From the NCBI GenBank assembly GCA_021813445.1, contig JAKAKP010000144.1:30447-94446 (forward strand): a stretch of DNA of 64,000 nt, given 5' to 3'. Below are positions 16,643 through 39,805 of this stretch, piece after piece. The translations under genes were made by a program, and so were the position numbers. The notes below the pieces were generated by a model. That model saw only the letters and a program-made list of their open reading frames with translations. It was not told the origin of the DNA and searched no databases. Every line of letters starts with the position of its first letter. Within the stretch, counting starts at the first letter, position 1. This DNA comes from Deltaproteobacteria bacterium (lineage in GTDB: Bacteria; Desulfobacterota; Desulfobaccia; Desulfobaccales; 0-14-0-80-60-11).

Positions 16643-17413
16643 ATGAAGGTGGTCATTTTAGCCGGTGGTCTCGGCACCCGGTTGGCAGAGGAGACCGAAG
16701 TCAAACCCAAGCCCATGGTAGAGATCGGCGGGCGCCCCATCTTGTGGCATATCATGAAGCTCTATGCCCATTACGGCTTCAACGAATTCCTCATTGCCCT
16801 GGGCTACAAAGGGGAGGTCATTAAGCGCTTCTTTCTGGACTACTACCGCATGAACGGCAGCATGACCATTAACCTCTGGAACGGCGATGCCCTCATGCAC
16901 CACAAAAAGGCGGAGGACTGGACGGTGCACCTTCACGACACCGGCATGAACGTCAACACCGGCGGCCGGGTCAAACGCCTGGAGTCCTGCCTGCGCAATG
17001 AGACCTTCATGGTGACCTACGGCGACGGCGTCAGCAACATTAATCTGGACGAACTGCTGAAATTTCACCACGCCCATGGCCGGTTGGCCACCGTCACCGC
17101 GGTGCGGCCCCCGGCCCGCTTCGGAGGCCTGATCTTCGACGGCGACATGGTGGCCCAGTTCACGGAAAAACCCCAGATCGGCGAAGGCTGGATCAACGGC
17201 GGTTTTCTGGTCTTCGAACCCGGGGTCTTCTCTTATTTGAAGGGAGATTTGGCCAGCCTGGAATCGGACGTCCTGGAGCAGTTGGCCGCGGAAGGGCAAC
17301 TGGCAGCCTATCGTCACGGCGACTTTTGGCAATGCATGGATACCCTGAGGGACAAGTTCCTGCTGGAAAACCTCTGGCAAAAGGGAGAACCCCCATGGCG
17401 GGTGTGGCAATGA
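16643..17413 (+). CDS. rfbF: Glucose-1-phosphate cytidylyltransferase
   Basis: [38 protein letters not shown] and overall colinearity with RfbF. There is an ATGA overlap with the next gene. Confidence 0.88.
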
Positions 17414-18432
17414 CCGCCGGGCAAACCCATTCCTTCTGGCAGGACCGCCCCACCCTGGTCACCGGGGCCACCGGTCTTTTAGGGGGCTGGCTGGTGCCGC
17501 GGCTGCTGGCTCAAGGTGCGGACGTGGTCTGCCTGGTGCGGGATTGGGTCCCCCAGAGCGCCTTAATTTCCGGCGACTGGCTCAATCGGGTCAAAACCGT
17601 CCGGGGGGAAATCGAGGATCAGGCGCTCCTGGAACGGGTGCTGGGGGAGTACGAGATCGACACCGTCTTCCATCTGGCCGCCCAGACCATAGTCGGCATC
17701 GCCAATCGCAACCCGGTGTCCACCTTTGCCTCTAATATCGGCGGCACCTGGGCCCTCCTGGAGGCCGCCCGGCGCAGCCCCGGGGTGCGGCAGATCGTCC
17801 TGGCCTCCTCCGATAAAGCTTACGGCGAGCACACCGGCGAGCCCTACCGGGAGGACAATCCCTTGCAGGGACGCCATCCCTACGATGTTTCCAAATCCTG
17901 CGCCGATCTCATTGCCCAGTCTTACGCGACCACTTACGGCCTGCCGGTAGCCGTCACCCGCTGCGGCAATTTTTTCGGCGGCGGCGACCTCAACTGGAAC
18001 CGCCTGGTGCCGGGGACCATTCGCGCCATTCTCCGGGGACAACCGCCGGTCATCCGTTCCGATGGCCGCTACGTGCGGGACTATTTCTACATCGAAGACG
18101 CCGCGGCCGCGTATATGCTCCTGGCCGAAAAGCTGGCGGCCCACCGGGAGCTCAAGGGTCAGGCCTTCAATTTTGCCCACGACACCACTTTGACGGTCCT
18201 GGAACTGGTGGAAGAGATCCTGCACCGCCTGGATTCCAGCCTGACCCCGGTGATCTTGAACGAGGTGCAAAGCGAAATCCTGTACCAGGCTTTGGATGCG
18301 GACAAGGCCCGCCGGGTGCTGGGCTGGCGGCCCAGGTTCTCCCTGGGGGAGGGCTTGACGCGGACCATCTCCTGGTACCGGGATTTTTTCGGGGCCGGGC
18401 AACCGCCGCTGCAGGCGGTTATGGGGAGTTAG
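17410..18432 (+). CDS. rfbG: CDP-glucose 4,6-dehydratase (SDR family)
   Basis: [20 protein letters not shown] and the YDVSKSCAD (YxxxK) motif are present, and the gene sits directly after rfbF. The start was placed at the ATGA overlap (17410). Confidence 0.7.
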
Positions 18433-18538: not shown

Positions 18539-19177
18539 ATGATAATTCGCCCCCTGCCAATAGACACCGCCACCTTGATTGAGGCCGAGCCCTTCGAGGA
18601 CCACCGGGGCCTCTTTGCCCGTTTTTTCTGCGCCCAGGAACTGGCCCAGATCTTGGGGGAGCGGCAGATCGTCAACGTCAATTTCTCCTGCACCCGCCAG
18701 GCCGGGGCGGTGCGGGGGATGCATTTCCAATTTGCCCCGCACCAGGAGATGAAGCTGGTGCGCTGTATCCGGGGGGCCGTCTTTGATGTGCTCGTGGACT
18801 TGCGGCCCTCGTCCCCCACTTTTCTTAAGTGGCACGGCGAAGTCCTGTCAGCCGCCAACTTGAGGATGCTCTGCGTGCCTGAGGGGTTTGCCCATGGGTT
18901 CCAGGCCCTGGAGCCCGACAGCGAGGTGCTTTACCTCACCACTGCGTTTTACCAGCCGGACGCGGAAGGGGGCCTCCGCTACGACGACCCGGCCCTGGGC
19001 ATTGAGTGGCCCCGGGAGGTCACGGATATCTCCCGGAAAGACGCGGCCCATCCGCTCCTGCAACCGGGGCAGCAGCCCTTGGAGAGGAATGGGGCGGAGC
19101 GCGGCCCCTGGACTTTAGGATCTAAGGAATCGGTGGGCAGTGCCCACCCTACATTAACTTTGAACTTTGAACCTTGA
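18539..19177 (+). CDS. RmlC-like NDP-4-keto-6-deoxyhexose 3,5-epimerase (cupin)
   Basis: Blocks FEDHRGLFARFF, RGMHFQ, FDVLVDLR and VPEGFAHGF are present. The last ~30 aa are a non-conserved extension that runs through a REP hairpin (VGSAHPTL). Confidence 0.8.
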   Translation: MIIRPLPIDTATLIEAEPFEDHRGLFARFFCAQELAQILGERQIVNVNFSCTRQAGAVRGMHFQFAPHQEMKLVRCIRGAVFDVLVDLRPSSPTFLKWHGEVLSAANLRMLCVPEGFAHGFQALEPDSEVLYLTTAFYQPDAEGGLRYDDPALGIEWPREVTDISRKDAAHPLLQPGQQPLERNGAERGPWTLGSKESVGSAHPTLTLNFEP

Positions 19178-19202
19178 ACTATTTGAAAGAACAGGAGCAA
19201 GC

Positions 19203-20072
19203 GTGAAAGTCTTGGTGAGCGGCGCCACGGGGTTCATTGGCCAGCAGGTCGTGCCCTTCCTGCAGGGCCTGGGCCGGTGCCGCATCCTCGCCAGCGCCAG
19301 GGATGAAGCCAAGCTCCAGGAACTGGGTGCGGATTATGTTGTCTATGACCTCAATCAAGAGCCCCATGATTGTTACGAGCGGCTGGGGCGGCCGGAGGTC
19401 TTGATCCACCTGGCCTGGGAGGGTCTGCCCCATTACCAGGAATCCTTTCACCTGGACCGCAACCTGGTGAACCATTACCGGTTTTTGCAAAGCATGATTG
19501 CGCAAGGGTTGCCCAGCCTGACAGTCACGGGCACCTGCTACGAATACGGGTTGCACAACGGCTGCTTGCCGGAAGAGACGGCTCCCAACCCCACCACCTG
19601 TTACGGCCTGGCCAAGGATGTCCTGCGCCGCCGCCTGGAGGCCCTGCAACAGCAGCATCCCTTCCGGCTGCGCTGGCTCCGCCTTTTCTTTCTTTATGGC
19701 CCAGGCCAGCCGGAACGGACCCTGATGGCCAAAGTGGACCAGGCCCTGGACACAGGGCAGGAGACCTTCGATATGTCCGGGGGCGAGCAGCTCCGGGACT
19801 ATCTCTCCGTGACGGAGGTCGCGGCCCTGATCGCCAAAGTGGCCCTGCAGCCGCGCTATGACGGGATTTTCAACATCTGTTCGGGGCAGCCCATTTCGGT
19901 GCGCCGCCTGGTAGAGGAGCATATCGCCGCCAGGGGCGGCCGGCTGCGCCTGAACCTGGGGGTCTTCCCCTACCCGGCCCATGAACCCCTGGCCTTCTGG
20001 GGCGACCCCAGCCGGCTGCGCCTCGCCGTAGCCGCATTTGAGGAGGAACAGCACCATGCCGCACACCCCTGA
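19203..20072 (+). CDS. NAD-dependent epimerase/dehydratase family 4-ketoreductase
   Basis: GTG start with an AGGAG RBS five nt upstream. VKVLVSGATGFIGQ is the Rossmann motif and the protein is of the RmlD/SDR type. Confidence 0.7.
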   Translation: MKVLVSGATGFIGQQVVPFLQGLGRCRILASARDEAKLQELGADYVVYDLNQEPHDCYERLGRPEVLIHLAWEGLPHYQESFHLDRNLVNHYRFLQSMIAQGLPSLTVTGTCYEYGLHNGCLPEETAPNPTTCYGLAKDVLRRRLEALQQQHPFRLRWLRLFFLYGPGQPERTLMAKVDQALDTGQETFDMSGGEQLRDYLSVTEVAALIAKVALQPRYDGIFNICSGQPISVRRLVEEHIAARGGRLRLNLGVFPYPAHEPLAFWGDPSRLRLAVAAFEEEQHHAAHP

Positions 20073-21324
20073 ATCGAGGCTAACAACCGTAACCGACCGC
20101 CTCCGGGACCGGGAGGTCTACCTCTGGGGAGCCCGTCAAGACGGCCTGAGCATGTGCCGGGTCCTGGAGCGCCAGGGGCGGCGGCCCGCAGGTTTCATCG
20201 ACAGCAGCGTCTCCCTCCAGGGGAAAACCGTCCTGGAGTATCCGGTCAAGGCACCGGCGGAGATCCTCAAGCATAACGGCCACCGGCCCTATATCATCAT
20301 CACCTCCGGCTTTTTCGCGGACGAAATCGCGCTCCAATGCCAGGACGCGGGTTTCACCACGCCCGAGGATTTCATCACCTTCTCGGAAATTCAGCGCTTC
20401 GACTACCAGATCGATATTTCCGGGGCCTGCAACCTCCGCTGCATCTCCTGCCCCCGGGGGAATTTTTCTCCCCAGCCCCGGGCCGGTTTCATGACCGCGG
20501 CCATCTTTGAGCAGGTCCTGGCCAAGATCCTCCGGGAAGACCCCTTTGTGGGCGCGGTCAGCCTCTATAACTGGGGCGAACCCTTGCTAAATCCGGATCT
20601 GGCCGCGATCATCCGCCACGCCAACGCCAAAGGGGTGCACACCGCGGTCTCCAGCAACCTCAATATCCGCAAGGACTTTGCCGAGGTCATCGCCGCCCGC
20701 CCCACCTGGTTCCGGGTCTCGGTGTCCGGCTCCGGGGCCAACTACGAAACCACCCATACCGGCGGTTCCTGGGACCTGTTTCTGAAAAATCTGTACCGGC
20801 TGCGGCAGTTGCAGACGGAACTCCACCCGGACCTCCAGGTGGAAGTCTTTTATCATATCTACCGCCATAACAATGGCGAGGATTTCCGGCTGCTGCAACG
20901 GCTCTGCGAGGAACTTGACTTTACCCTGCGCTTTCGCCACGCGGCCCTGGCCCCCCTGGAAAACATCGAAGCCGTCATCGACGGCAAGCCGCTCAATCCC
21001 CAGGTGCAGCGCACCATGGAGTTGCAGGCCCTGCCGGTCCCGGAAGCCATGGAGATCGCCCGCAGCCAAAAGGACCGGCCCTGCTTTTACGAGCGCTGCC
21101 TCTGGATCACCTGGGACCTCAAGGTGAGCCAGTGCATGGAATGGTTTGACCCCAAGCTCCTGCTGGTGCCGGGGGATTTTTTGTCCACCCCCATGGCAGA
21201 AATCGAAGCTGCCAGGAAGAACAACGCCTTTTGCCGCCACTGTAAGGAAAAGGCCATTCACCGCTGCTACGCGGTTTACGGCGACGAAAAGCTGGTGCAC
21301 GAGCGCCAAAGCGTGGCTTTGTAA
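20056..21324 (+). CDS. Radical SAM enzyme, paralog 1 (N-terminal Rossmann-like module, C-terminal Cys-rich auxiliary-cluster region)
   Basis: CNLRCISCP (CxxxCxxC), YNWGEPLLNP, SSNLN, YHIYRHN, and C-terminal Cys residues (PCFYERC, SQC, CRHC). [10 protein letters not shown] before the ATG at 20056. Confidence 0.8.
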   Translation: MPHTPESRLTTVTDRLRDREVYLWGARQDGLSMCRVLERQGRRPAGFIDSSVSLQGKTVLEYPVKAPAEILKHNGHRPYIIITSGFFADEIALQCQDAGFTTPEDFITFSEIQRFDYQIDISGACNLRCISCPRGNFSPQPRAGFMTAAIFEQVLAKILREDPFVGAVSLYNWGEPLLNPDLAAIIRHANAKGVHTAVSSNLNIRKDFAEVIAARPTWFRVSVSGSGANYETTHTGGSWDLFLKNLYRLRQLQTELHPDLQVEVFYHIYRHNNGEDFRLLQRLCEELDFTLRFRHAALAPLENIEAVIDGKPLNPQVQRTMELQALPVPEAMEIARSQKDRPCFYERCLWITWDLKVSQCMEWFDPKLLLVPGDFLSTPMAEIEAARKNNAFCRHCKEKAIHRCYAVYGDEKLVHERQSVAL

Positions 21325-21337
21325 GGGAGATGCCGTG

Positions 21338-22621
21338 ATGTCGGAATCGAGGCTGAGTTCCACCCCCTTGCAACACCTGAACGGCAGCCGCCCCATTTAT
21401 CTCTGGGGCGCCAGCCAGGCCGGCATGGGCATGCTCTACGCCCTGCGCCGCCAGGGTGTTGACATTACCGGTTTCATCGATAAGCGCAAGGCCCTCCAGG
21501 GCGGCGCCATTTACGACCAGCCGGTGTACAGTCCGGAAGAGGTCTTATACGGGCCGCGGCGGGCCTCCAGGCCTTTCATCATCAACACCACCTTCCAGCA
21601 TAAAAATGAAATCAGCGCGGTCTGTGAGGCCGCGGGCCTGCTCCCCGGTGAGGACTACCTCTATTATGAGGAATTGAGCCCCTTCGATTACCAGGTGGTG
21701 GTCTGCGGCATCTGCAACCTCCGCTGCATCTCCTGCCCCATGGGGAATATGCCGGCAAAGGAGCCCGCGGGCATGATGTCCGCGGCCACCTACGCCCGGG
21801 TCCTGGACAAAATCCTCCAGGAGAATCCTTACCTGGGCATCATCCAGCTCTACAACTGGGGGGAGCCCCTCCTTAATCCGGAGCTGCCGGAAATCATCCG
21901 CCTCACCAATGAGCGGCAGGTGCTTTGCGCGGTCTCCAGCAACCTGAGCCTGACCCGGGATTTCGAGGAAGTCATCCGAGCCCGGCCCGGCTGTTTCCGC
22001 ATTTCTTTGTCAGGTTGGGGCGAAACTTACGCCATCACCCATACCAAAGGCAATTGGAGCCTGGTGCTAAAAAACATGCGTCGCCTCAGTGAGCTGCGGG
22101 CCCGGCACTGCCCGGAGATGCCCGTGGAGGTCACCTACCATCTCTACCGGCACAACCAGAACGACGCCATGAAGATCGGGCTTTTATGCGCGGAGTTGGG
22201 TTTTGTCTTCCGGCCCCACATGGCCGCACTCCTGCCGTTGGATAATGTTGTCACCTATATTAACGGCGGCCAATTGACCCCGGCGGCGGAACAGACCCTG
22301 GAAATCCTGCTCCTCCCCATCGACCAGGCCGTGAAAATGGCGGCCGGGGAAAGACACCTGGCCTGTAATTTTGAGCACGCCATCAATATCGATTGGGACC
22401 TGACCGTCAAACACTGCGGCTTGTACTACAGCCGCGCCGATAACCAGGCTGCGGACTCTTATCTGGAGACCTCTCTGGCCGAGATTATAGCTCGGCGCCG
22501 GACCAGCCGGTTGTGCCGTACCTGTCGGGGGAAAGGCCTCCATCGGTTCTGCCGCCTCTATACCAGCGAGACCCCCGAACTCGAAGAACAAACTCATACC
22601 ATCAGGGAAGCTGCCTCATGA
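21338..22621 (+). CDS. Radical SAM enzyme, paralog 2
   Basis: The same architecture with CNLRCISCP, YNWGEPLLNP, YHLYRHN and CRTC. AAGGGAGA RBS before the ATG at 21338. Confidence 0.8.
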   Translation: MSESRLSSTPLQHLNGSRPIYLWGASQAGMGMLYALRRQGVDITGFIDKRKALQGGAIYDQPVYSPEEVLYGPRRASRPFIINTTFQHKNEISAVCEAAGLLPGEDYLYYEELSPFDYQVVVCGICNLRCISCPMGNMPAKEPAGMMSAATYARVLDKILQENPYLGIIQLYNWGEPLLNPELPEIIRLTNERQVLCAVSSNLSLTRDFEEVIRARPGCFRISLSGWGETYAITHTKGNWSLVLKNMRRLSELRARHCPEMPVEVTYHLYRHNQNDAMKIGLLCAELGFVFRPHMAALLPLDNVVTYINGGQLTPAAEQTLEILLLPIDQAVKMAAGERHLACNFEHAINIDWDLTVKHCGLYYSRADNQAADSYLETSLAEIIARRRTSRLCRTCRGKGLHRFCRLYTSETPELEEQTHTIREAAS

Positions 22622-23910
22622 CCACGGAAAGAACGGCTGCCATCAAGTGTATGGACCTTAACGACCTGGAGGCGCTGCGCCGGGGCCGCCCCGTGTATCT
22701 CTGGGGCGCGTCCATCGTCGGCCACGGCGTCTGCCGGGCTCTGGAGCGCAGCGGCCTGGCCCCGACGGCCTTTCTCGACCGCAGCCCCCGTCTGCGGGGC
22801 AAAAAGGCCCTGGACTACCCGGTCTGGCCCCCGGAGGCCCTGCTGGAGCAGGCCGACGCCCGGGAGAAAGCCTTCATCATCATCGCCTCGGGGCATTATG
22901 AGGATGAAATCGCGGGCAACTGCCGGGAGGCTGGCCTGGAACCGGGGCAGGACTTCATCTCCTCCCGGGCCCTGTCTCCCCTGGACCCCAGTGTGGACAT
23001 CGCCGGGATTTGCAACCTCCGCTGTATCAGTTGTCCCCGGGGCAATATGGCCGAAAAGCCTCCCAAGGGGTTCATGACTCCCGCCACCTTCGAGCTGGTG
23101 CTGGACAAGTTGCTCAAGGAGCTGCCTTTCTTGGGCAATATCCAGCTTTATGCCTGGGGGGAGCCTTTGTTGCACCCCCAGATAGCCGAGATCATCCGCC
23201 TGACTCGGAAGCGCCGGCTCCTGAGCGCCATTTCCACCAACCTGAACGTGCGCCGGGACCTCACCGAGGTGATCCAGGCGCAGCCCGACTGGCTGAAAAT
23301 TTCCGCGTCCGGCTTCGGGGCCAATTACGAGATGACCCATACCGGCGGCAAATGGGACCTGTTCTATAGCAACCTCTTCCGGCTCCAGGAGTTACGGGAA
23401 CGCCACCACCCCAGCATGTATGTGGAGATGAACTACCACCTCTACCGCCATAACCTGGGGGAGGACTACCGGCAAATGGCCCAACTCTGCCAGAAGCTGG
23501 GGTTCGCATTCCGTCCCAATTGGGCCTATCTCTATCCCCTGGACAACGTTCTGGCCTATTGCCAGGGACAGCCCCTGAGCCCGGAGGCCGAACGCACCCT
23601 GGACCTCTTGCTGTTGAGTCTGGATCACGGTCTGGCCCGGGCCCGCAGCCAGGCCCATCTGCCCTGTGCCGAGGCCCGCTGCTTTCCCATTGCCTGGAAT
23701 CTGAACGTGCGTTCCTGCGGCGCGTTTTTTCTCCCCACCGTGGTGGACAACTTTCTGGAAGTGCCTCTCCCGGAAATCCTCCGCCGCCGGGACGCCAGCG
23801 GTATTTGCCAGGAATGTCAGCGCCATGCCCTGCATCGCTTCACCAGCGTCTATCTGGAGGAGGCCATGCCCATTGCTGCCGGCGCCACCCAGCAAGGAGC
23901 CACAGGCTGA
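22618..23910 (+). CDS. Radical SAM enzyme, paralog 3
   Basis: The same architecture with CNLRCISCP, YAWGEPLLHP, YHLYRHN and CQEC. ATGA overlap with paralog 2. Confidence 0.8.
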   Translation: MTTERTAAIKCMDLNDLEALRRGRPVYLWGASIVGHGVCRALERSGLAPTAFLDRSPRLRGKKALDYPVWPPEALLEQADAREKAFIIIASGHYEDEIAGNCREAGLEPGQDFISSRALSPLDPSVDIAGICNLRCISCPRGNMAEKPPKGFMTPATFELVLDKLLKELPFLGNIQLYAWGEPLLHPQIAEIIRLTRKRRLLSAISTNLNVRRDLTEVIQAQPDWLKISASGFGANYEMTHTGGKWDLFYSNLFRLQELRERHHPSMYVEMNYHLYRHNLGEDYRQMAQLCQKLGFAFRPNWAYLYPLDNVLAYCQGQPLSPEAERTLDLLLLSLDHGLARARSQAHLPCAEARCFPIAWNLNVRSCGAFFLPTVVDNFLEVPLPEILRRRDASGICQECQRHALHRFTSVYLEEAMPIAAGATQQGATG

Positions 23911-25178
23911 TGCAGACCTTCCAGGCACATAGTCGGATTCGCCCGGTCCTGGAGCGCCTCTCCGGACGCCCGGTCTATATCTGGGGTGCAGGGCAGCAGG
24001 GCCGGGGCATGGGCCGGGTGCTGGAACGCCAGGGGGTAGAGCTCCGGGGCTACTTGGATTCCAGCCCGCAGTTGCACGGTCGCTCCGCCTTGGGCTATCC
24101 CATCTCCCCGCCCGAGGCGGTCCTGCAGCCCGCCGTCCCCAACGGCAAACCCTTCGTGATCATTGCCTCCTTTTTCTTTGAAAAGGACATCATGGAGCGC
24201 TGCCGCCTGGCCGGCCTGGAAGCAGAGCGCGATTTCATCTCCTACAAGGACCTGAAACCCTTCGATTATGCCATCGACGTCTCCGGGGCCTGCAACCTGC
24301 GCTGCCTCTCTTGCCCCCGGGCCACCCGCAGCCACCGCCACCCGCCGCCGGGGTTCATGACCCCCGGCGTTTTTACCCAGGTCCTGGATAAGATCCTGGA
24401 CGAAGACCCCCTGGTGGGCAATCTCCAGCTTTATCAATGGGGCGAGCCCCTGCTCAACCCCCAGCTGCCGGAAATCCTGGGCCTCGCCAACGCCAGGGGG
24501 CTCCCCTGCGCCCTGTCCAGCAACCTGAATTCCACGACCAACCTGGAGCCGGTCATTGCCGCAGGCCCGGCCTGGTTCCGTATCTCCGTCAGCGGCGTGG
24601 GCCGGGAATACGAGCGCACCCATACCGGGGCCACTTGGGCCAAGTTATTGAAAAACATGGAAAGCCTGGCCGAGTTGCGGGCCCGCCTGCGGCCGGACAT
24701 GAAGACCGAGGTCTACTACCATCTCTACCGCCACAATCGGGACGGCTCCCTGGACGAAGTGAAGCGGCTGTGCGAGCGCTTCGAGTTCGAGCTCCACCCG
24801 GTCTGGGCTTATCTCATCTCCCTGGACGACGTGCTGGAATATCTCGAAGGCGGCGAACTCACCCCCCAGGCCCAAGAGGCCGCAGAGATGCTGGCCCTGG
24901 GTCTGGAGCAAGGCATGGCCCTGGCCCGCAGGGAGATTCGGGAAAAGTGCCTGGTGGACCGGTGCATCCATGTCAATTGGAACCTCACGGTGAGTAACTG
25001 CATGATGTTCTTTTATCCCCAGGACAATATTGCCGCGGCCAATTTTCTGGAAACGCCCCTGGAAGAGATTTTGTCGACCCGGGTCAAAAGCAGCCTCTGC
25101 CGGCGCTGCCGGGCCCAGGCCCTGCACCGCTACTGCAACGTCTACAATACCGAACAGATCGAAGGAGCCGCCGCCTGA
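23910..25178 (+). CDS. Radical SAM enzyme, paralog 4
   Basis: The same architecture with CNLRCLSCP, YQWGEPLLNP, YHLYRHN and CRRC. TGATG overlap with paralog 3. Confidence 0.8.
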   Translation: MQTFQAHSRIRPVLERLSGRPVYIWGAGQQGRGMGRVLERQGVELRGYLDSSPQLHGRSALGYPISPPEAVLQPAVPNGKPFVIIASFFFEKDIMERCRLAGLEAERDFISYKDLKPFDYAIDVSGACNLRCLSCPRATRSHRHPPPGFMTPGVFTQVLDKILDEDPLVGNLQLYQWGEPLLNPQLPEILGLANARGLPCALSSNLNSTTNLEPVIAAGPAWFRISVSGVGREYERTHTGATWAKLLKNMESLAELRARLRPDMKTEVYYHLYRHNRDGSLDEVKRLCERFEFELHPVWAYLISLDDVLEYLEGGELTPQAQEAAEMLALGLEQGMALARREIREKCLVDRCIHVNWNLTVSNCMMFFYPQDNIAAANFLETPLEEILSTRVKSSLCRRCRAQALHRYCNVYNTEQIEGAAA

Positions 25179-25179: not shown

Positions 25180-26649
25180 ATGAGCACGATCTTACATATC
25201 ACCCCCCACCTGGGGGGCGGGGTCGGCCGGGTCCTCCGGAATTTTTTGACCTACAGCCGGGATCATTCCGCGGATACTCACCGTCTGGCCTGCCTGGATT
25301 ACGCCAACGCCCCCTCCCAGGCCTGGGCCGCGGCCGCAGGGATCGACTTGAGCGACAACCTGGCCTGGCGTCTGCCGGCATTGCTGGAGATGGTGGCCGC
25401 CGCCGACCTGGCGGTGGTCAACTGGTGGAACCACCCCCTGCTCTTCGACCTGCTGGTGCGCCACCCCTTGCCGCCAGCCCGGGTGCTCCTGTGGTCCCAC
25501 GTTTCCGGGCATACGCCGCCCCAAAATTTTTCCCGGGCCTTGCTGGATTATCCGGACCTCTTCGTGGTGGCCACCCCTTACAGCTTCGAGGCCCCCGCCA
25601 TCCGCCGCCTGCCCCGGAAAAAACGGGAGGCCAAAGTGCGGCTGGTTTTCAGCTGTGCCGGGATCGACCACGTCGCCCAGGCCAGCCCCCGGCCCCATGC
25701 CGGTTTCCGCATCGGCTACATCGGCACGGTGGATTATGCCAAGATGCACCGGGATTTCCTGCAGATGAGCGCCGCGGCCCGGATTCCCGGGGTGCGCTTT
25801 GTGGTTTGCGGCGGCCCCAGTGAGGAGGCCATCCGCCGGGAAGCTCTAGCGGCCGGCATTGCCGAGAAATTTTATTTTCTGGGCCAGGTCGATGATGTCG
25901 CCCAGGTGCTGGCCGACCTGGACGTCTTCGGCTATCCCCTGGCCCCGGGCCATTACGGCACCGGCGAGCAGGTCCTGATCGAGGCCCTGGCCGTGGGAGT
26001 GCCGCCGGTGGTCCTGGATAACGGCCCGGAAGGCCACGTGGTTGCGGACGGCGTCACCGGTTTGGTGGTGCAAAATAGCCGGGAGTATACCGTAGCCCTG
26101 GAGCGGCTCTTCCGGGAACCGGCCTGGCGCCTGCGCCTGTCGGAAAACGCCCGGCGCCACGCCCGCCAGAGATTCACCATCGCCCAGACGGCCCAGGCCT
26201 GGCAGGCCCTTTTCCAGGAGGCCCTGGAGTTGCCCAAGAGCCCCCGGGCCTGGCCTCAAAAGAACGGCGGCGCCACCGCGGCCGAGGTCTTTGTAGCCGC
26301 ACTGGGGGAAGAAGCCAAAGAATTTGCCCGGAGCCTGGACCAGGACCAACTGAAGCGGGCCCTGGCCGCGGATCGGCGCATCGCCCGGAAGCCCGGTCTC
26401 TTCCGCAGCGCTACTCGGGGCAGCGTCTTCCATTACCAGTCGTTTTTTCCGGACGACCCGTATCTCAACCTCTGGGCGGGGCTCATGCTCCTGGCTGACG
26501 GCGACCCCGTCAAGGCCCGGGAGCGCTGCGCGGCCGCGCAAAGCCTTTTGCCGCCCTGGCGTCTCTCCCAGTATCTGCGGAAACTGGGCATCCCGGCGGG
26601 CGACACCCGGCCCCGGGAGAGCGCGGCCCCTTGCCGCGCCTCGGCCTGA
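25180..26649 (+). CDS. GT-B glycosyltransferase (GT4/Glycos_transf_1-like) with a C-terminal extension of about 130 aa
   Basis: MSTILHITPHLGGGVGRV at the N-terminus and the E-x7-E-type block GEQVLIEALAVGVPPVV...VTGLVV. The start is 1 nt after the upstream stop codon. Confidence 0.75.
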   Translation: MSTILHITPHLGGGVGRVLRNFLTYSRDHSADTHRLACLDYANAPSQAWAAAAGIDLSDNLAWRLPALLEMVAAADLAVVNWWNHPLLFDLLVRHPLPPARVLLWSHVSGHTPPQNFSRALLDYPDLFVVATPYSFEAPAIRRLPRKKREAKVRLVFSCAGIDHVAQASPRPHAGFRIGYIGTVDYAKMHRDFLQMSAAARIPGVRFVVCGGPSEEAIRREALAAGIAEKFYFLGQVDDVAQVLADLDVFGYPLAPGHYGTGEQVLIEALAVGVPPVVLDNGPEGHVVADGVTGLVVQNSREYTVALERLFREPAWRLRLSENARRHARQRFTIAQTAQAWQALFQEALELPKSPRAWPQKNGGATAAEVFVAALGEEAKEFARSLDQDQLKRALAADRRIARKPGLFRSATRGSVFHYQSFFPDDPYLNLWAGLMLLADGDPVKARERCAAAQSLLPPWRLSQYLRKLGIPAGDTRPRESAAPCRASA

Positions 26650-26712
26650 CCGCAGCTCTTGGGGGACGATTTTAGCAAGTATGCACCTGAACGACCGTAT
26701 AAGGGGAATAAT

Positions 26713-28155
26713 ATGAAAATCCTACTCATCCCGTCCTACACGCTGGATTCCGTTACCCGGGTGGGGCGCACCCCGCCCTTGTCTCTGCTTTTCCTGGCCG
26801 CGGTTTTGCGCCAGGCCGGGCACGAGCCCCGGATCCTGGACTTGGATTCGCTCCCCGCCCCCCGGAACCTGGACCGGGAAACCTTTTATCTGCAAACCGT
26901 GCTGGCAGCGGTGGCGGAGCAGCGTCCCGGGATGGTGGGGATCAATTGTCTGCTCACCACCCATTTCCCCTTTGTGCGGCGCACCGCCGAGGCCATCAAG
27001 GCCCGGCATCCCTCCCTGCCTCTGGCCATCGGCGGCATCCATCCCACCTTGTTCGCCCGGGAGATCCTGGAGCATTGTCCGGCCATCGACGCCATCGCCC
27101 TGGGGGAGGGGGAAGATCAGGCGGTGGCCCTGGCCCAGGCCTTTGCCCAGGGCAACCGGACCGCTCTAGGCCATATCGAGGCCCTGGCCTTCCGGGACCA
27201 AAACGGCGCGGTGCAGGTCACCCCCCGCCGGGGCTACATCAAAGATCTGGACCGGCTGCCGGCTCCGGCCTGGGACCTGATCCGCCTGGAGGACTACTAC
27301 ACCGATCATTCCACCTGGTACAACCCCCGGGGCCTGGAGATCAAGATGTCCATCCCCATCCTCTCCAGCCGGAGCTGCCCTTACAATTGCAGCTTCTGCT
27401 CCGCCCACAAGATGATGGGCCGGGGCCACCGCCTCCGCAGCCCGGAGCTGGTGGTGGACGAAATGCAGATGCTCTATGAGCGTCACGGCATCAATTATTT
27501 CGGCTTTGTGGACGACAATCTCACCCTGAATAAACCGCACATCCTGGCGATTTGCCGGGAGATCGTGCGCCGCGGCCTGGTCATCCAGTTCGAATCTTTC
27601 AACGGCTACAACCTCAACTCCCTGGATGAGGAGATCATGGAGGCCATGGTGGAGGCCGGCTGTGTTTACGTCATCCTCCCCATTGAACACGGCTCCGACC
27701 GCATGCGCCAGGAAATCATCGGCAAAAAGATCAGCCGGGGAAAAATCTTCCAGGTGGCGGAACTCTGCAAGCGCTATGACCTTCTGACCAGAGGGGTCTT
27801 CATCATGGGCTTTCCGGAGGAGACCCGGGAGACCCTGACCGACACCTATAATATGATCCACGACCTGCAGCTGGACATGAACCTGGTCTTCAATCTCATC
27901 CCCTATCCCGGGACCAGGATCTTTCAGCAGGCCCTGCGGGATAACCTCTTTTTAACTGAAATCGACGCCGGACGGCTCTGGGACGGCACCTGGGACCTGA
28001 ACGCCCTCCAGAGCCAATTCTATCTCCGGCCTTATCACCTGAGCCTGGAGGATTTGCAGGAGTTTCGGGAAAAGTTTGACGCCCTCAAGTTCTTTTCGCC
28101 CCGGGCCCAGGCGTTGCAGGCCCCCAGGACTCATGAGCATGTGCTCCAGACTTGA
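26713..28155 (+). CDS. B12-binding-domain radical SAM enzyme (class B)
   Basis: N-terminal B12-binding-like fold (MKILLIPSY...LSLLFLAAVLRQAGHEPRILDLD) and the SRSCPYNCSFCS radical SAM motif. AAGGGG RBS before the start. Confidence 0.8.
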   Translation: MKILLIPSYTLDSVTRVGRTPPLSLLFLAAVLRQAGHEPRILDLDSLPAPRNLDRETFYLQTVLAAVAEQRPGMVGINCLLTTHFPFVRRTAEAIKARHPSLPLAIGGIHPTLFAREILEHCPAIDAIALGEGEDQAVALAQAFAQGNRTALGHIEALAFRDQNGAVQVTPRRGYIKDLDRLPAPAWDLIRLEDYYTDHSTWYNPRGLEIKMSIPILSSRSCPYNCSFCSAHKMMGRGHRLRSPELVVDEMQMLYERHGINYFGFVDDNLTLNKPHILAICREIVRRGLVIQFESFNGYNLNSLDEEIMEAMVEAGCVYVILPIEHGSDRMRQEIIGKKISRGKIFQVAELCKRYDLLTRGVFIMGFPEETRETLTDTYNMIHDLQLDMNLVFNLIPYPGTRIFQQALRDNLFLTEIDAGRLWDGTWDLNALQSQFYLRPYHLSLEDLQEFREKFDALKFFSPRAQALQAPRTHEHVLQT

Positions 28156-29344
28156 AACCAGCCGCGCCTTAACCAGGCCCTGCCCGCAGTGCAGCGGCCG
28201 CCGGGGCCGGGAGCTCAGTCGGCTGCGCTTCCAGGGCTTCGACGACTCACCCCTGGCCGGGGCCTTCTCCCTGGCCGTCTGTGCGGAATGCGGCGCGGCT
28301 TTTTACGATACACCTTCGCAGCAAAGCGATTACGACCGGTATTACCGGGGCAACGCCTATTACTTCACTTCGGCCGCCAGCGGTAGCGGCGGTGCCACGC
28401 CCGCAGACCGGCGGCGTTTTGCAGAACTAGCCCGGCGTCTGGTCCCTTATCTGCCCCGGCAGGACGCGGCCATCTTTGACGTGGGCTGCGCCAAGGGCGG
28501 CCTCCTGGCAGTTCTGGCGGAGCACGGCCATACCCGTCTCTACGGCGTGGACCTGATGCCCGCCTGTATTGATTATGTCCGGAACCACCTGGGGCTGGCC
28601 GCGGACTTCGGCTCGGCCTTGGATCTCCCCTTTCCGGAAGTCCGGGCCGATGTCTTGATTTACTCCCATATCGTCGAGCACGTCATCGACTTGCCCGCGC
28701 TGCTGGCCGCGGCCCGGGAGAAGCTGAGTGACCAGGGGCTGGTCTATGTGGAAGTGCCGGACGCGTCCCGTTACGGGGAAAATTCCCGTTATCCCTACCG
28801 GGACCTGTACCTGGAGCACGTCAACCACTTCGACCGGGACACCCTGGTCGGCCAATTCCAGGCCGGGGGCTTCTCCCTGGTGAGCAGCGGCGGCTTTCTC
28901 CTGGAGCCTTTGCCCCAGGGTCCCGTGCCCTGTCTCTGGGCCATCTTCCGCCGGGGGGATGAGCAGAAACGAACCGCAAGCAACGGTCTGGAAGGGCGGC
29001 TCCGGGACTACCTGGCCTGGTCCCGGCAGCATCCGGCCCTGGGAAAAATCGCCCAACTGGCCTGGCAGCAAACCCCCCTTTACCTCTGGGGGCTCTCCCA
29101 ATACGCCATGCTCCTGCTGGGCCAAACCGACTTGGGCCGCTGCGCCCTCCAGGGGTTGGTGGACCAGGACCCTTACAAGCAGCAGCGGACGGTGGGCGGG
29201 AGGCCGATCCACGCCCCCGAGGTTTTACGGGAGGCCGATCCCCGGGCCGCGGTCCTGGTCACGGCCCTGGGGTACGAGGACCAGATCGCCGCGGCCCTGG
29301 AGGAGATGGGCTTTCGCGGCCTAGTGGTGACGACTGCGGGCTGA
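28133..29344 (+). CDS. Zn-ribbon class I SAM-dependent methyltransferase with a C-terminal Rossmann-like module
   Basis: CPQCSG...CAECG zinc ribbon, IFDVGCAKGG methyltransferase motif I, and a C-terminus (PLYLWGLSQYA...YEDQIAAALEEMGF) homologous to the N-termini of the four radical SAM paralogs. The layout resembles sugar C-methyltransferases. Confidence 0.7.
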   Translation: MSMCSRLETSRALTRPCPQCSGRRGRELSRLRFQGFDDSPLAGAFSLAVCAECGAAFYDTPSQQSDYDRYYRGNAYYFTSAASGSGGATPADRRRFAELARRLVPYLPRQDAAIFDVGCAKGGLLAVLAEHGHTRLYGVDLMPACIDYVRNHLGLAADFGSALDLPFPEVRADVLIYSHIVEHVIDLPALLAAAREKLSDQGLVYVEVPDASRYGENSRYPYRDLYLEHVNHFDRDTLVGQFQAGGFSLVSSGGFLLEPLPQGPVPCLWAIFRRGDEQKRTASNGLEGRLRDYLAWSRQHPALGKIAQLAWQQTPLYLWGLSQYAMLLLGQTDLGRCALQGLVDQDPYKQQRTVGGRPIHAPEVLREADPRAAVLVTALGYEDQIAAALEEMGFRGLVVTTAG

Positions 29345-29430: not shown

Positions 29431-30222
29431 ATGGAGACAAATATGTCATATCATAACCAGATCATGGAAGATGCGGGCTTCGAGAAGCAAAAATGGCTGA
29501 TCAACCTGCTGCAACGGGAAAATGTCACCGTCGTCGACGTCGGCGGCCATGTCGGTGAAAGCATCGAAGAATATCGGACGCTATTTCCAGACTGCCGCGT
29601 CTATTCCTTTGAGCCCCATCCCGAATCTTTCATTACCCTGGAACAGCGCTGGGGCCGCTTAAACGGCGTCCACGTCGAGCGGCTGGCATTGGGCGCCAAG
29701 TCCGGAGCCGTGTCTTTTTACGCCACCAGATGTTCTTCCGCTTCCTCCTTGCTGCCCCCGGAAGGCTTCCTCCAGGAACGCAGCGCCAAAAGAAATTATG
29801 ATTATTTGAAAATGGAAGTGCCCATGGACACTTTGGACCACGTCGCCGCCCGCCTTTCTTTGAGCGGCATCGATATTTTGAAAATGGACGTCCAGGGCTC
29901 GGAACTGCAGGTTCTACAAGGCGCGGCAGGCCTCCTGCGGGCATCGCAGATCGACCTTATCTTCTCTGAAGCCCTGTTCGCTGAAACCTATGCGGGGCAG
30001 AGTGATTTTAATGAAATTTGGAGTTACCTAAAGAATTACGGGTATGTGCTTTGGGACCTGTTCCCCTTTGTCCATACGACCCTGGGCCGGTTGTGGACCG
30101 CCAACGCCATCTTTCTAAGCGCCCCCATTGCCGCCCAAATCGACCGCTGCCATCCGCCTGTCTCACCCAGGCCTGCGGACCAAATGGAGTATGGTGCCAA
30201 GAATCTTGCTGATCATTTCTAG
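29431..30222 (+). CDS. FkbM family methyltransferase
   Basis: VVDVGGHVGESIEEY...VYSFEPHPESF...LALGAKSG...LKMDVQGSE is the characteristic FkbM pattern. Confidence 0.8.
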   Translation: METNMSYHNQIMEDAGFEKQKWLINLLQRENVTVVDVGGHVGESIEEYRTLFPDCRVYSFEPHPESFITLEQRWGRLNGVHVERLALGAKSGAVSFYATRCSSASSLLPPEGFLQERSAKRNYDYLKMEVPMDTLDHVAARLSLSGIDILKMDVQGSELQVLQGAAGLLRASQIDLIFSEALFAETYAGQSDFNEIWSYLKNYGYVLWDLFPFVHTTLGRLWTANAIFLSAPIAAQIDRCHPPVSPRPADQMEYGAKNLADHF

Positions 30223-30245: not shown

Positions 30246-33200
30246 ATGCAAGGCCATGAGATTAACCAACACCCCCTGGTCTCCATCGGCATGTTGGTTT
30301 ACAACGGCGAACGATTCCTGGCGCAATCACTCGAATCACTGCTTTCCCAAGAATATAAAAATTTTGAACTCATCATCTCGGACAATGCCTCGGAAGACCG
30401 CTCCGGGGAGATCTGTTTAAAATACCAGGCCCGGGACTCCCGCATTCAATACTCCCGCAATGAAACCAATATGGGGTCAATCTACAACGGCACCAAGGTC
30501 AGGGACCTGGCCCGGGGCAAATACTTCATGTGGGCCTCCGATCATGACCTCTGGCATCCCACCTTACTGACCAAGGCCGTGGCAGTTATGGAAAATGATC
30601 CAGAGGTAATCTTGTGCTATTCCCGGGCCCAGCGGATCGATAAAGAGGGCAATTTCCTCTGCCTGGGCCCCGACTATTTGGATACGCGAGGCATGTCGCC
30701 GCCGGCGCGCTTTCTCCATCTCATCGGTTACCATTGCGGCGGCGAATTGATTTATGGACTTTTCCGCCGGGAAAACCTCAGTCGTATCAAAACGAAAGCA
30801 ATTTGGGCCTCAGATATTTATATCTTATCGGCTTTAGCCCTGGAGGGCACTTTCGTCCACCTGCCCGAGGTGCTTTTTTCCTTGCGCAAGATCCGGGATG
30901 AAGAGATAGAAAGCCACAAGAAGACCCAGGCCCACAACCTGGACCCGGCCAGGACCAAGGAAATGCTGGCCATGGACCTGCATGCGCTCTGGCGGGAATT
31001 GGGGGAAGAATGCCTGTCCGTGGTACAAGGCAGTTCCTTCCCGGACCTGGAGAAAGAGGTTCTGCTGGAGGAAACCAAGAACTGTTTTACCACGCGTTTT
31101 GAGGTGCAATGGCCAGGCTCCCCGGAGGCTGCCGAAAACAAGGGCATCCGTGGCCAGGTTGACGCCCCCGCCCTCCTGACCGATACCGCCGCCAAAGAAG
31201 CCTGGAGAGAACGCCGCGCCGCCAGGCTGGCCCGCAAGGAGGCGAAACAAAGAATTGTGGAGGAGGCAATGCGGCGGCGGCAATATTGGGGGGGACAATG
31301 GCCCCTGGTCTCGGTGATCGTCCCCACTTACAACCGGCCGGATACCCTGGGGGCCGCCCTGCAAAGCATCCTCAATCAAACTTATAAGAACCACGAAGTC
31401 ATCGTGGTCAACGACGGCGGCCTGGACGTGAGCGGCATCGTGGGCTGGCTCAATCAGCAGGGCAACATCACCTACGTCCAGCATGACCGCCGCCGAGGCC
31501 GGGCCGCGGCCTGCAATACCGGCCTGAAACTGGCCCGGGGCCAATATATCGCTTACCTGGATGATGACTCCCTCTTCTACCCCGAGCACCTGGCGGTTCT
31601 GGCAACCGTGCTGGTGGACAGCGAGTACCGGGTGGCTTACACAGACGCGCTTCGGGCCCGTTTAGAGAATCAATGCGGCCGGAATGTGGTCGCCGCCAAA
31701 GACCTGCCTTATTCATATGAGTTTGATCAGGAGCGGTTGCTGGTGGCTAACCAGTTTCCGAGCCTCTGTCTCATGCACGAGAGATCCTGCCTGGAGCAAG
31801 CCGGCCTCTTCGATGAAAGCCTGAGTAGCCATGAGGATTGGGATTTATTGATCCGGCTTTCTTTCCGCGATAAATTTTTCCACATCAAACGGGTCACCTG
31901 CGAGTTCACCCAGGGCCAGGAAGACGACGCCACGGTCGGCCAGAAGCAGGCGGATCTCGTGCGCACCATGGAAATCGTCCATGGCAAGTATCAAGATCAC
32001 CTGCAGGACAAACCGCAGATTCAGGAGCAGCAACGGCAATTCTTGCAGCATCAAAAAGATGCCGCCCAAAGGACCTGCGCCGGATCCAGGCCTGAGACCC
32101 CCAACCCGGATCAACTGCTGCAATTGACCAATGAGGCCCTGGAGCGGGAGGACTGGGAAGCCGCGGAAACCTGTCTCCGGGACCTGATCCGCAGCCACCC
32201 GGACCTTCTGGATGGTTACCTCTCTTTGAGCGACGTCCTCACCTTGCAGGGGAAAGATCAGGACGCCAGGGAAGTCTTGCGGGCCGCCCGGGAGCTGGCC
32301 CCCGAGGCCCTGCCCCTGCTGAAGCGCCTGGGCGCCAATTGCCGGAAGCGGGGTGACTTCAGCGGCGCCTTGACCGCGTTTACCAAGGTTTTGGAGCACA
32401 CCCCCAGAGATACCGAGGCTCTCTGCCAATTAGGCGCCACTTACCTCGATCTGGGGCTCTTGCAGGAGGCCCAGACCCATTTAACCGCAGCGCTGCAGAT
32501 CAATCCCACGAATCTTGATGCCCGGAAGTTACTGGCCCAGGTGGCCCAATACCTGGCAAGTGGCGAGACCTCAGACCCGGTCTCCTCCCAGGCCCCCGCG
32601 CCTGATGCCGGGCACCGCGCTCCGGAAAAGACCGGGACCGGCCAAGCCGGGGAATTCGTCAATATCTGCATGGTTACTTATAACCGCTTGGATTTCACCA
32701 AACAGGCCATCGACGCCCTGGTCCGGCTTACCCACTATCCCTATGTGTTGACGGTGGTGGACAACGGCAGCACCGACGGCACTCCGGCGTATCTGGAAAG
32801 TCTCAAGGCCCGGGGAGTAATTAAAAACCTGATCCTGCTGGATGAAAACCTGGGAGTGGCCAAGGCCTCCAACCTGGCTTGGAGCCTGGAGCCGGAAGCC
32901 GCCTGCTATCTCAAGCTGGACAATGACATCATCCTGCAAAAGGATGGCTGGCTGGAAGACATGGTGGCGGTGATCAATCAGGTGCCTGAAATCGGCGTCC
33001 TGGCTTACAGTTTCGAGCCCCGCTCCTACCCGCTGGAAGTGTGGCACGACGTGACGATACGCATCAAAAAGGGCACCCTGGGGGGGGCCTGCCTGCTGAT
33101 CCCCAAACGCACCGAACGTCTCTTGGGGTATTTTTGCGAAGAATACGGGCTTTACGACGAAGAAGATGCGGATTACGGGGTGAGAGTCCTGGCTGCCAAC

Positions 33201-38113: not shown

Positions 38114-38419
38114 CCGCTACCCTCCTATGAGTAATAATTCCCTAAGGTTTTAAGGTTCTTAACGCCGGCAAAAAAAATCGATCACCTCCCCAGCCTATTT
38201 TTTCCTCCTGAAAATACTAGCTTTAGATGAATGACAATACATACCCTAGATTACCCCGCCCTGTAAAGGAAAAATTTCACAAGTCTAGAAGCTATTTTTC
38301 CCTCCCCTATTTTTCCCTGGCGAAGATTTGCTCTAAGCTTAATTTGTGGATATTATTACAAATCACCTGCGGCCTGGAAATTTTTCCTTGCGCCCGACGT
38401 GGAGGAACAATTTGAAAAA

Positions 38420-39112: not shown

Positions 39113-39265
39113 AAAAATATAAAAACTTCCTCACATCTGAAATATCAGATATTTCTTCTTACTATCTCTTGCAATTTATAAATAGATATTATAATCCAAA
39201 AAGACGCATTTATTATTGTTACCACTGATATTATAATCATAATTCCATATATAAATTCATGAACA

Positions 39266-39616
39266 CTATGCTTCAATCCAATAATTTTCGTCATTATCCG
39301 CCACATATTTTGCCATAACAGATATTATAAGTTGTATTGTTAGATATAAAAACCTATTACCCTGAATATTTAATTCTATTGAATCGCTTTCTTGTTTACA
39401 AACCTTGGAGGCACTATAACATAAAGATGATATCCCTATCGCAGAGCCTATTAATGCCAACAATACCGTTGTTAGATGTGCGTTTATATCTTTTGTAATA
39501 AATATTAATGCAATAATTAATACAAGAAAGAAAATAATTGGTAGAAATAAAAAAATCTGTAATTTTCTCAATATATTTTTTATCTTAAACATTAAGTTAT
39601 TCATAATCATTGTCAA
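39266..39616 (-). CDS. Hypothetical small membrane protein in an AT-rich islet
   Basis: A 116-aa ORF with two or three hydrophobic helices. Composition is very AT-rich relative to the surroundings. No family was recognised. Confidence 0.35.
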   Translation of the reverse strand: MTMIMNNLMFKIKNILRKLQIFLFLPIIFFLVLIIALIFITKDINAHLTTVLLALIGSAIGISSLCYSASKVCKQESDSIELNIQGNRFLYLTIQLIISVMAKYVADNDENYWIEA

Positions 39617-39631
39617 TTAATTTTTATTACT

Positions 39632-39716: not shown

Positions 39717-39805
39717 AGATGTAAAGCTGGAGCTTTCTCCTCCAATTGGGATTCCAAAGCAGTTGAACATGAGCCTTTGCCTCACCCATGAACCATGAAA
39801 AGGTC

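Follow-up and report, generated by a model that had tools for sequence, protein, structure and literature searches.

Routes from cytidine diphosphate (CDP)-glucose to a 6-deoxyhexose are known from Bacillus cereus (the CDP-cillose/CDP-cereose operon) and from Azotobacter (CDP-vinelose); they combine a cytidylyltransferase, a 4,6-dehydratase, a methyltransferase and an epimerase/reductase, and to our knowledge none includes a step catalysed by a radical S-adenosylmethionine (SAM) enzyme. More generally, we know of no nucleotide-sugar pathway with more than one radical-SAM step, and almost all the cases known to us belong to antibiotic pathways. NeoN and AviX12 are radical-SAM sugar epimerases encoded by single genes, and act on finished oligosaccharide antibiotics. 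We describe here a 64,000-nucleotide (nt) stretch—hereafter the window, in which all coordinates are given—of contig JAKAKP010000144.1 from a Deltaproteobacteria bacterium, where four consecutive radical-SAM genes, named A, B, C and D in their order, lie within a CDP-sugar cassette. The enzymes for CDP-cillose, CDP-cereose and CDP-vinelose resemble the non-radical half of this cassette; beyond them, it comprises three to four radical-SAM enzymes of the twitch type, a B12-binding radical-SAM enzyme and several more methyltransferases. PMC7725333 mentions the routes to CDP-cillose and CDP-cereose. The composition of the cassette suggests that an undescribed, heavily modified sugar is made via radical chemistry.

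The four genes were presented in an earlier, sequence-only reading of the window as tandem paralogs over their full length, sharing a set of invariant motifs, and both statements hold. The proteins align end to end with pairwise identities of 42.5–46.3% (family alignment, about 400–418 aligned residues), BLASTP local identity rises up to 47.5%, and the E-values of the all-against-all BLASTP comparison (1e-120 to 1e-134) are far beyond chance. The motifs CNLRC[IL]SCP (with C125, C129 and C132), LYxWGEPLL[NH]P, S[ST]NL, SxSG, THT and YH[IL]YRHN are each invariant in the alignment of the four proteins. At the DNA level, GAGGAGG stands 9 nt upstream of the ATG of A, a gap containing GGGAG separates the TAA of A from the start of B, and B/C and C/D overlap as ATGA and TGATG respectively. 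Both overlaps and the ribosome-binding site in the gap are thus as first read, but the gap measures 13 nt and not 14, the start of B then implied being one base off. The overlaps indicate co-transcription and possibly coupled translation; the stoichiometric co-expression that had been drawn from them goes further than overlaps alone can establish. The numerous antisense open reading frames (ORFs) across this stretch, whose GC content is 60–64%, are the usual artefacts of high-GC DNA.

By motif, Pfam score and fold, A to D are members of the radical-SAM superfamily, for which cleavage of SAM is predicted. Pfam Radical_SAM (PF04055) gives 40.1 bits for A, 35.3 for B and 37.5 for D, against a gathering cut-off of 29.5, C being marginally below with 29.1; the CX3CX2C motif formed by C125, C129 and C132 is kept in all four and in all 109 family members compared, from 36 loci. 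An AlphaFold2 model of A, built from an alignment of 102 sequences (predicted local distance difference test score, pLDDT, 94.1; predicted template-modelling score, pTM, 0.92), was compared with the PDB by Foldseek and matched many radical-SAM structures with E-values from 1e-10 to 1e-7. These belong to the SPASM/twitch group: BlsE (the top match, 2.6e-10), anSME, SuiB, SkfB, CteB, BtrN, DesII, MoaA, EpeE and viperin-like enzymes. The highest template-modelling (TM) score normalised to the query is 0.47, while BtrN reaches 0.64 when the score is normalised to the target. The WGEP of A–D aligns with the YGEP of BtrN, a GGE-type SAM-binding motif.

In the C-terminal part, C343, C360, C393 and C396 are invariant in A–D; among the 109 family members all clades keep the first three, and a single clade-C sequence lacks C396. 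Four invariant cysteines had been proposed there, and their actual spacing is Cx16Cx32Cx2C, the dots of the earlier pattern being schematic. The model of A places a beta-hairpin (strands 348–351 and 356–358) between the first two cysteines, and a helix (391–398) over the CxxC. As modelled, the C-terminal domain has the layout of a twitch domain, in which a single auxiliary cluster, whose binding is predicted, would be ligated by cysteines alone. The SPASM subclass does not fit: PF13186 has no match to A–D at E ≤ 1, and with only four conserved C-terminal cysteines the seven-cysteine motif is not attained. Two distant family members, P0179 and P0203, do match SPASM. Besides, C284 is conserved in about 95% of the family but stands within a predicted helix, and no clear hydrogen-donor cysteine was identified in the family. 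The three-part architecture first proposed, i.e. a Rossmann-like N-domain, a radical-SAM core and a twitch-like cysteine domain, is borne out.

The nearest relative in sequence among solved structures is BtrN (PDB 4m7t, E = 6e-8), the 2-deoxy-scyllo-inosamine dehydrogenase of the butirosin pathway. BtrN acts on a sugar-like substrate, and its twitch domain, with a single auxiliary cluster ligated by cysteines only, shows the hairpin-plus-helix that is also predicted in A; HMMER aligns C393/C396 to the C-terminal CxxC of BtrN, in a second domain below threshold. The match is, however, significant over only about 75 residues (query 119–193) and no equivalog model is reached; moreover BtrN, with its 250 residues, is devoid of an N-terminal docking domain, is encoded by a single-copy gene and uses an aminocyclitol, not a nucleotide sugar. 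DesII, the deaminase/dehydrogenase of thymidine diphosphate (TDP)-4-amino-4,6-dideoxyglucose (PDB 8hzv; Foldseek 3.6e-8, sequence search 1.7e-5), and BlsE, the cytosylglucuronate decarboxylase (PDB 7vob), resemble A–D, in the role proposed for these, as radical-SAM enzymes that have a nucleotide sugar or a cytosine nucleoside sugar as their direct substrate. On the other hand their TM scores are 0.42–0.47, they have no PglD_N-like domain and do not occur as tandem paralogs; the DesII model TIGR04426 matches D only, with 20 bits against a cut-off of 450.

Curated models did not bring us closer to a function. No NCBIfam model comes near its cut-off for A–D, the best of any kind being TIGR04317 (39–56 bits vs 380), and the AprD4 model matches none of the four. 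Searches of A–D in Pfam, NCBIfam and the PDB sequences gave matches at superfamily level or below threshold only, which assign no function; the names met among family members are generic (“radical SAM protein”, “hypothetical protein”, “MoaA/NifB/PqqE/SkfB family”); and literature searches, with subscription-only literature outside their reach, yielded no paper on the family. A curated function for A–D was rejected, every named-family cut-off being missed. The claim that no characterised family fits these proteins thus withstood Pfam, NCBIfam, PDB, Foldseek and literature alike.

The N-terminal domain links these enzymes to nucleotide sugars. A profile built from residues 14–112 of 47 diverse family members matches 3nkl, the N-terminal domain of a WbpM/PglF-type enzyme (3.3e-8), VioB (5.5e-5), Rex (1.3e-4) and PglD (0.009), and in Pfam the 47 domains show recurrent weak matches to PglD_N (10/47, E ≥ 5e-4), CoA_binding and Methyltransf_14 (3/47). 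Modelled separately (pLDDT 87), the domain superposes best on VioB (Foldseek 2.5e-4; root-mean-square deviation of 2.9 Å over 88 columns), and further on Rex, 3nkl, WbaP, PerB, PglB-ATD and the KijD1 C3-methyltransferase. Judged from profile and model, it is a small Rossmann-like fold of the PglD_N/VioB/KijD1 type. The same domain, with GAxxxG and an Asp ending strand 2, is found in the N-acetyltransferases PglD, VioB and PerB and in the C-3 methyltransferases TcaB9 and KijD1, in which it holds the nucleotide of a nucleoside diphosphate (NDP)-sugar; by analogy, the ligand in A–D would be CDP or a CDP-sugar. In the described proteins the domain is borne by a left-handed beta-helix or by a class I methyltransferase, in A–D by a radical-SAM/twitch part. 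Within curated libraries and the literature (subscription-only papers excluded), neither a fusion between an NDP-sugar anchor and a twitch radical-SAM enzyme nor a nucleotide-sugar pathway with three or four twitch radical-SAM enzymes in tandem turned up as already described.

This anchor domain is not restricted to A–D. The profile also detects it at the C-terminus of the class I methyltransferases called MT_C in related cassettes (21 matches, down to 2e-10), including that of the window (residues 332–414, E = 9.5e-10); at the N-terminus of a group of FkbM methyltransferases (1e-13); at the N-terminus of other radical-SAM proteins of the same cassettes; and at the C-terminus of the B12-binding radical-SAM enzyme of locus L003, a protein that has in addition a Methyltransf_14 match (9e-7). 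Besides the window MT_C, examples of loci with this recurring domain are L004:18807-19934, L003:3304-5109 and L025:8722-9963. Since one docking module occurs on five kinds of catalyst per cassette, the sequence matches are best explained by a common substrate handle, which would here be the CDP moiety.

The family is widespread. Among 8,000 scored candidate proteins, 434 match A at E ≤ 1e-5, and an exhaustive search of 1.84 billion representatives (50% clustering) returned 254 matches when the threshold was E ≤ 1e-30 and 936 when it was relaxed to E ≤ 1e-10. A scan with one genome per species led to 64 loci, on which tblastn and ORF clustering were carried out: full-length relatives are nearly always in tandem sets. 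In the neighbour-joining tree of 109 copies, three large orthologous clades corresponding to A, C and D, each of about 30 loci, have a similar internal topology, and 27 loci, spread over several phyla, have A, C and D in one and the same order. B forms a rare fourth clade—five loci in the tree and a sixth by tblastn—and more distant copies lie beyond the clades A–D. Paralogs of the same locus are 33–47% identical, for a mean identity of 50–56% within a clade; as identity within clades exceeds that between paralogs of one locus, the triplication is old and three is the conserved number. Thus the four copies first described are right for the window but not as a conserved number, which is three (A, C and D), B being present in 6 of the loci examined. 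Related loci hold from 1 to 6 copies.

Three loci, two from cultured Chromatiaceae and one from a metagenome-assembled genome (MAG) of Thermoguttaceae, contain a further member 32–39% identical to A–D (L013:14970-16451, L020:15104-16261, L022:1765-3015); the extra copy of Chromatiaceae adjoins GT4 on its 3' side, and these loci also have four copies, the fourth not being orthologous to B. On the 65-kb plasmid CP026658.1 (L066) of isolate Smac51, a pure culture from cockroach hindgut, six family members are all annotated as hypothetical; they neighbour a perosamine synthetase-like gene, an asparagine synthase, methyltransferases and a CmcI-like gene.

Several features of the clades bear on what the individual copies do. 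At ten positions each of A, C and D has its own fixed residue; 117, 220, 265, 292, 297 and 299, among these, are on or just after predicted strands of the core. These clade-specific positions would be near the active site. Together with the age of the clades, they fit differing specificities. Every clade keeps both cluster sites, so that no copy appears to be a degenerate scaffold. The closest relative of the window locus, L001, is in a Deltaproteobacteria MAG, and its A is 94% identical; its B homolog (L001:3098-3613) is a 171-aa remnant in which the last ~15 codons follow immediately on the N-domain and CX3CX2C. This looks like an in-frame internal deletion of ~270 codons, but as the MAG has a coverage of ~1.8x an assembly artefact could be the cause. 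An apparent B-C fusion in L016 was rejected because a TAA separates the two genes, and we found no two family members fused in nature.

The surroundings of the paralogs are also conserved. We clustered 37 neighbourhoods, i.e. 36 loci and the window, in which the counts of cassette genes are lower bounds because contigs end. A fixed cassette emerges: RfbF-RfbG-RmlC-SDR-A-(B)-C-D-GT4-(B12 radical SAM)-MT_C-FkbM-RMNT/CmcI methyltransferase, where SDR stands for short-chain dehydrogenase/reductase and brackets for genes not always present. GT4 occurs in at least 25 of the 37 neighbourhoods and lies directly 3' of D in the complete cassettes laid out; MT_C and SDR each occur in at least 23, RfbF within 10 kb in at least 21, the RmlC-like gene in at least 19, RfbG in at least 17, the B12 radical-SAM gene in at least 16, and RMNT and FkbM each in at least 12. 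The genes that flank the cassette vary from locus to locus, and no transporter, exporter, polymerase, flippase, acceptor, flagellin or S-layer gene conserved with it was found among the neighbourhoods. The carriers include Desulfobacterota, Chromatiaceae (Allochromatium warmingii DSM 173, Thiorhodococcus minor DSM 11518), Competibacter, Methylococcaceae, Mariprofundus, Planctomycetota (Pirellulaceae, Thermoguttaceae), Fibrobacterota (Fibrobacteria, Chitinispirillaceae) and Myxococcota (Sandaracinaceae). The fixed order of the cassette and its differing flanks therefore argue for a self-contained module spread horizontally. The sequence-only reading would have been weakened by a characterised family to which the four proteins belong, or by homologs mostly single and unlinked to sugar genes; gene-neighbourhood mining gave homologs that are typically multi-copy and tied to rfbF/rfbG, and no characterised family fits.

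RMNT, a gene of the Rhamnosyl O-methyltransferase/CmcI family (PF04989, E = 1e-102), is present in 12 cassette loci (including L009, L012, L014, L022, L023, L026 and L028; e.g. L019:13808-14548) and absent from the window. It hints at a cassette sugar that is rhamnose-like and O-methylated.

The reading that we favour, with about an even chance of being right, is that A, C and D, and here also B, are separate enzymes which act successively on the CDP-6-deoxyhexose of the cassette, each at a different sugar carbon. RfbF, RfbG, the RmlC-like epimerase and the SDR would produce this CDP-6-deoxyhexose, probably of the L-series; the PglD_N/VioB-like N-domain of each paralog would dock the CDP handle, the CX3CX2C cluster would cleave SAM, and the 5'-deoxyadenosyl radical would take a hydrogen from one carbon of the sugar. 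An electron might then be handled by the fully cysteine-ligated auxiliary [4Fe-4S] cluster, as in BtrN, and the substrate radical be resolved into a keto, epimerised or eliminated product. The methyltransferases having the same docking domain and the B12 radical-SAM enzyme would add methyl groups, before the GT4 encoded directly after D transfers the finished sugar. The nearest characterised relatives (BtrN, DesII, BlsE, anSME and the viperin-like enzymes) abstract hydrogen from a carbon of a sugar, a cyclitol, Ser/Cys or a nucleotide. The CDP-sugar substrate, the one position per paralog and the order of steps are proposals, and the chemistry itself is put forward by analogy with such enzymes. 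Each single outcome—a ketone via the auxiliary cluster, an elimination, or the return of hydrogen on the opposite face—is at best doubtful; for the last, NeoN and AviX12, likened to A–D by description only, are a precedent of radical inversion at an unactivated sugar carbon, as one possible outcome per paralog. A C1-linked 6-deoxyhexose has exactly three secondary carbinol carbons, as many as there are conserved radical-SAM enzymes, which is a numerical coincidence at present.

A wider proposal, more tentative and in our opinion rather unlikely to hold in all its parts, is that the A-C-D triad and, in some lineages, B or further copies form a new radical route, each copy working on a different carbon of one CDP-6-deoxyhexose, which together with four to five methyltransferases would give a hyper-modified sugar of undescribed type, e.g. 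inverted, oxidised or C-branched at several positions, by means of a self-contained cassette spread horizontally over at least eight bacterial lineages.

Several observations weigh against successive action on a CDP-sugar, and some of them feed other explanations. Its chemistry rests on analogy, the similarity to BtrN covering ~75 residues and the Foldseek TM scores not exceeding 0.47. Conventional enzymes already oxidise or epimerise next to a 4-keto group, so that three radical steps are not accounted for. As folds, the NAD(H)-binding (nicotinamide adenine dinucleotide) domain of Rex and the coenzyme A-binding domains are equally close to the N-domain, whose ligand might for that reason be other than CDP. 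Finally, strict co-occurrence and the mirror-tree correlation fit a complex equally well. It is indeed conceivable that A, C and D, with or without B, are subunits of a single hetero-oligomeric radical-SAM machine performing one transformation, or tightly channelled ones: they co-occur strictly and in fixed order in 27 loci, their stops and starts overlap in the window, and over these loci their distance matrices correlate with r = 0.90–0.92. Yet co-inheritance of the cassette by itself explains this correlation; both cluster sites are kept in every copy, related loci exist with 1, 2, 4 or 6 copies, no two members were found fused in nature, and L001 retains A, C and D despite its truncated B. 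The variable copy number and this last locus speak for independent enzymes, and we regard a common machine as distinctly improbable.

Another possibility is that the radical-SAM enzymes intervene after glycosyl transfer, on a glycan linked to a lipid, a protein or a polymer, the N-domain serving to sense a nucleotide or to bind a partner. About 44% of the top 150 family representatives have no anchor domain, and some anchor-less cores are fused to GT4+GT2 (P0178), to two GT2 (P0237) or to TPR repeats (P0263, P0264, P0269, P0222); a distant anchor-less homolog in a Nitrospirae MAG adjoins three methyltransferases, a GT2, an SDR, a DegT aminotransferase and an ABC transporter. This connects the radical-SAM core with glycan assembly at large, and for the anchor-less members the substrate may be a glycan instead of a free NDP-sugar; such chemistry could also be that of A–D, a further point against the reading that we favour. 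The GT4 gene immediately 3' of D in complete cassettes is in line with this, as is the established fact that the homologous domain of WbaP and WbpM/PglF-type enzymes is not a catalytic substrate site. Conversely, in VioB, PerB, PglD and KijD1 it is this domain that binds the NDP-sugar, cassette methyltransferases with TcaB9/KijD1 architecture share it, and no conserved flippase, polymerase or acceptor gene accompanies the cassette; on balance we think action after transfer unlikely. We consider it very improbable that the four genes are recently duplicated, redundant isozymes, or maturases of peptides synthesised ribosomally and modified after translation (RiPPs) that merely adjoin sugar genes. 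Tandem duplicates are common, and most characterised SPASM/twitch enzymes do modify peptides, SuiB, SkfB, CteB and EpeE being among the Foldseek matches; but the clades are old and common to several phyla, nucleotide-sugar and methyltransferase neighbours are consistent (21–25 of 37 neighbourhoods), neither a conserved small precursor ORF nor a RiPP recognition element was seen in the cassette, and the NCBIfam models of RiPP maturases are all far below cut-off.

In the window, the genes between 16643 and 35873 all point the same way and are separated by short gaps or overlap (Table 1). The CDP-sugar setting, already recognised from the sequence, is upheld by an RfbF above its equivalog cut-off, the best match of the RfbG-like protein, the RmlC-type epimerase and the SDR.

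Table 1. Genes of the CDP-sugar cassette and operon in the 64,000-nt window
Feature	Position	Strand	Remarks
RfbF, glucose-1-phosphate cytidylyltransferase	16643..17413	+	TIGR02623 366.5 bits vs 300.25; Pfam NTP_transferase; opens the cassette
RfbG-like NDP-hexose 4,6-dehydratase	17407..18432	+	best NCBIfam match TIGR02622 (CDP-glucose 4,6-dehydratase) 217.5 bits, below 278.45; Pfam Epimerase and GDP_Man_Dehyd; start codon uncertain, ORF opens at 17326
RmlC-type NDP-4-keto-6-deoxyhexose 3,5-epimerase	18539..19177	+	TIGR01221 163.1 bits vs 155.75; PF00908 E = 2e-59
Extended SDR, putative 4-ketoreductase or epimerase	19167..20072	+	Pfam Epimerase E = 3.8e-24; PDB relatives MoeE5 and GalE-type enzymes; public gene call, on the metagenome contig ENA ERZ27237541 (88.8 kb), starts at 19203, 289 aa
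Radical-SAM paralog A	20056..21324	+	422 aa; anchor domain ~19-110, radical-SAM core ~113-300, twitch-like domain with C343/C360/C393/C396
Radical-SAM paralog B	21338..22621	+	427 aa; minor fourth clade; every motif intact in the window copy
Radical-SAM paralog C	22618..23910	+	430 aa
Radical-SAM paralog D	23910..25178	+	422 aa
GT4-family glycosyltransferase (GT1)	25180..26649	+	Pfam Glycos_transf_1; ~140-aa C-terminal extension; directly after D
B12-binding radical-SAM enzyme, putative C-methyltransferase	26659..28155	+	Pfam B12-binding and Radical_SAM; start uncertain
Class I SAM methyltransferase (MT_C)	28136..29344	+	Methyltransf_23, weak Methyltransf_14; N-terminal Cys4 ribbon, C-terminal copy of the anchor domain
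FkbM-family methyltransferase	29431..30222	+	PF05050, TIGR01444
1875-aa protein with five GT2 domains and TPR repeats	30246..35873	+	Pfam; window-specific end of the operon, outside the conserved cassette

The B12 radical-SAM enzyme of the window reaches no NCBIfam equivalog. The assignment of MT_C as a C-methyltransferase of the TcaB9/KijD1 type was rejected, since its PDB matches are generic class I methyltransferases; as only its architecture and C-terminal domain resemble C-methyltransferases, we claim no C-methyl branch. Within the gene of the 1875-aa GT2/TPR protein, a ~1.2-kb module is duplicated in tandem at 33564-35795, the copies having 71–80% nucleotide identity and a start-to-start spacing of 1233–1236 nt. 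Between 16.4 and 36.2 kb no convincing internal promoter or terminator was found, promoter-like sites numbering 6 for 5.1 expected by chance; terminator-like hairpins are somewhat in excess, 34 for 21.4 in shuffled sequences, but weak, and those within 16.6–35.9 kb lie inside coding sequence. Scans of the window for Rfam families and tRNAs were empty. The cassette is flanked by genes of housekeeping or unrelated function: upstream, by fmt, def, an LptG-like permease gene and a divergent gene for an ArnT/PMT-like GT-C; downstream, by the gene of an H+-pyrophosphatase.

Elsewhere in the window, some features are worth recording by themselves. An AbiTii-family gene, of the abortive-infection type (6112-7020, minus strand, Pfam E = 9e-40), lies between a PAP2 phosphatase gene and a DUF116 gene and is unrelated to the radical-SAM finding. 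In the stretch 38100-41500 the GC content drops down to 0.47 at 38–40 kb; small ORFs predicted to encode membrane proteins (38420-39112, 39266-39616 and 39968-40453) occur there, the small ORFs of this stretch having no Pfam match. The minus-strand gene at 54832-56445 encodes a C10 (streptopain-like) cysteine peptidase that starts with a Spi inhibitor-like propeptide and also has a CarboxypepD_reg domain; it adjoins the gene of an adenylate cyclase with a HAMP domain (56752-58722).

What sets this cassette apart from the known pathways is the presence of three or four radical-SAM enzymes in series, each with a built-in handle for nucleotide sugars. If the wider proposal is true, this would be the first case outside antibiotic pathways in which radical-SAM enzymes tailor a nucleotide sugar iteratively, and the paralogs would make up a new class of fusion between an NDP-sugar anchor and a twitch radical-SAM enzyme. 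They are a good target for enzymology, yet uncharacterised radical-SAM families are numerous. The system is testable: the four enzymes encoded upstream should supply the substrate from CDP-glucose, and some carriers are in culture (Allochromatium warmingii DSM 173, Thiorhodococcus minor DSM 11518 and isolate Smac51). More widely, the logic of the anchor domain, common to radical-SAM enzymes, class I and FkbM methyltransferases and a B12 radical-SAM enzyme, could help to predict the substrates of orphan radical-SAM enzymes. As for the bacteria themselves, sulfate reducers, purple sulfur bacteria and planctomycetes are all among those in which the cassette is conserved, which points to a sugar that is secreted or borne on the surface.

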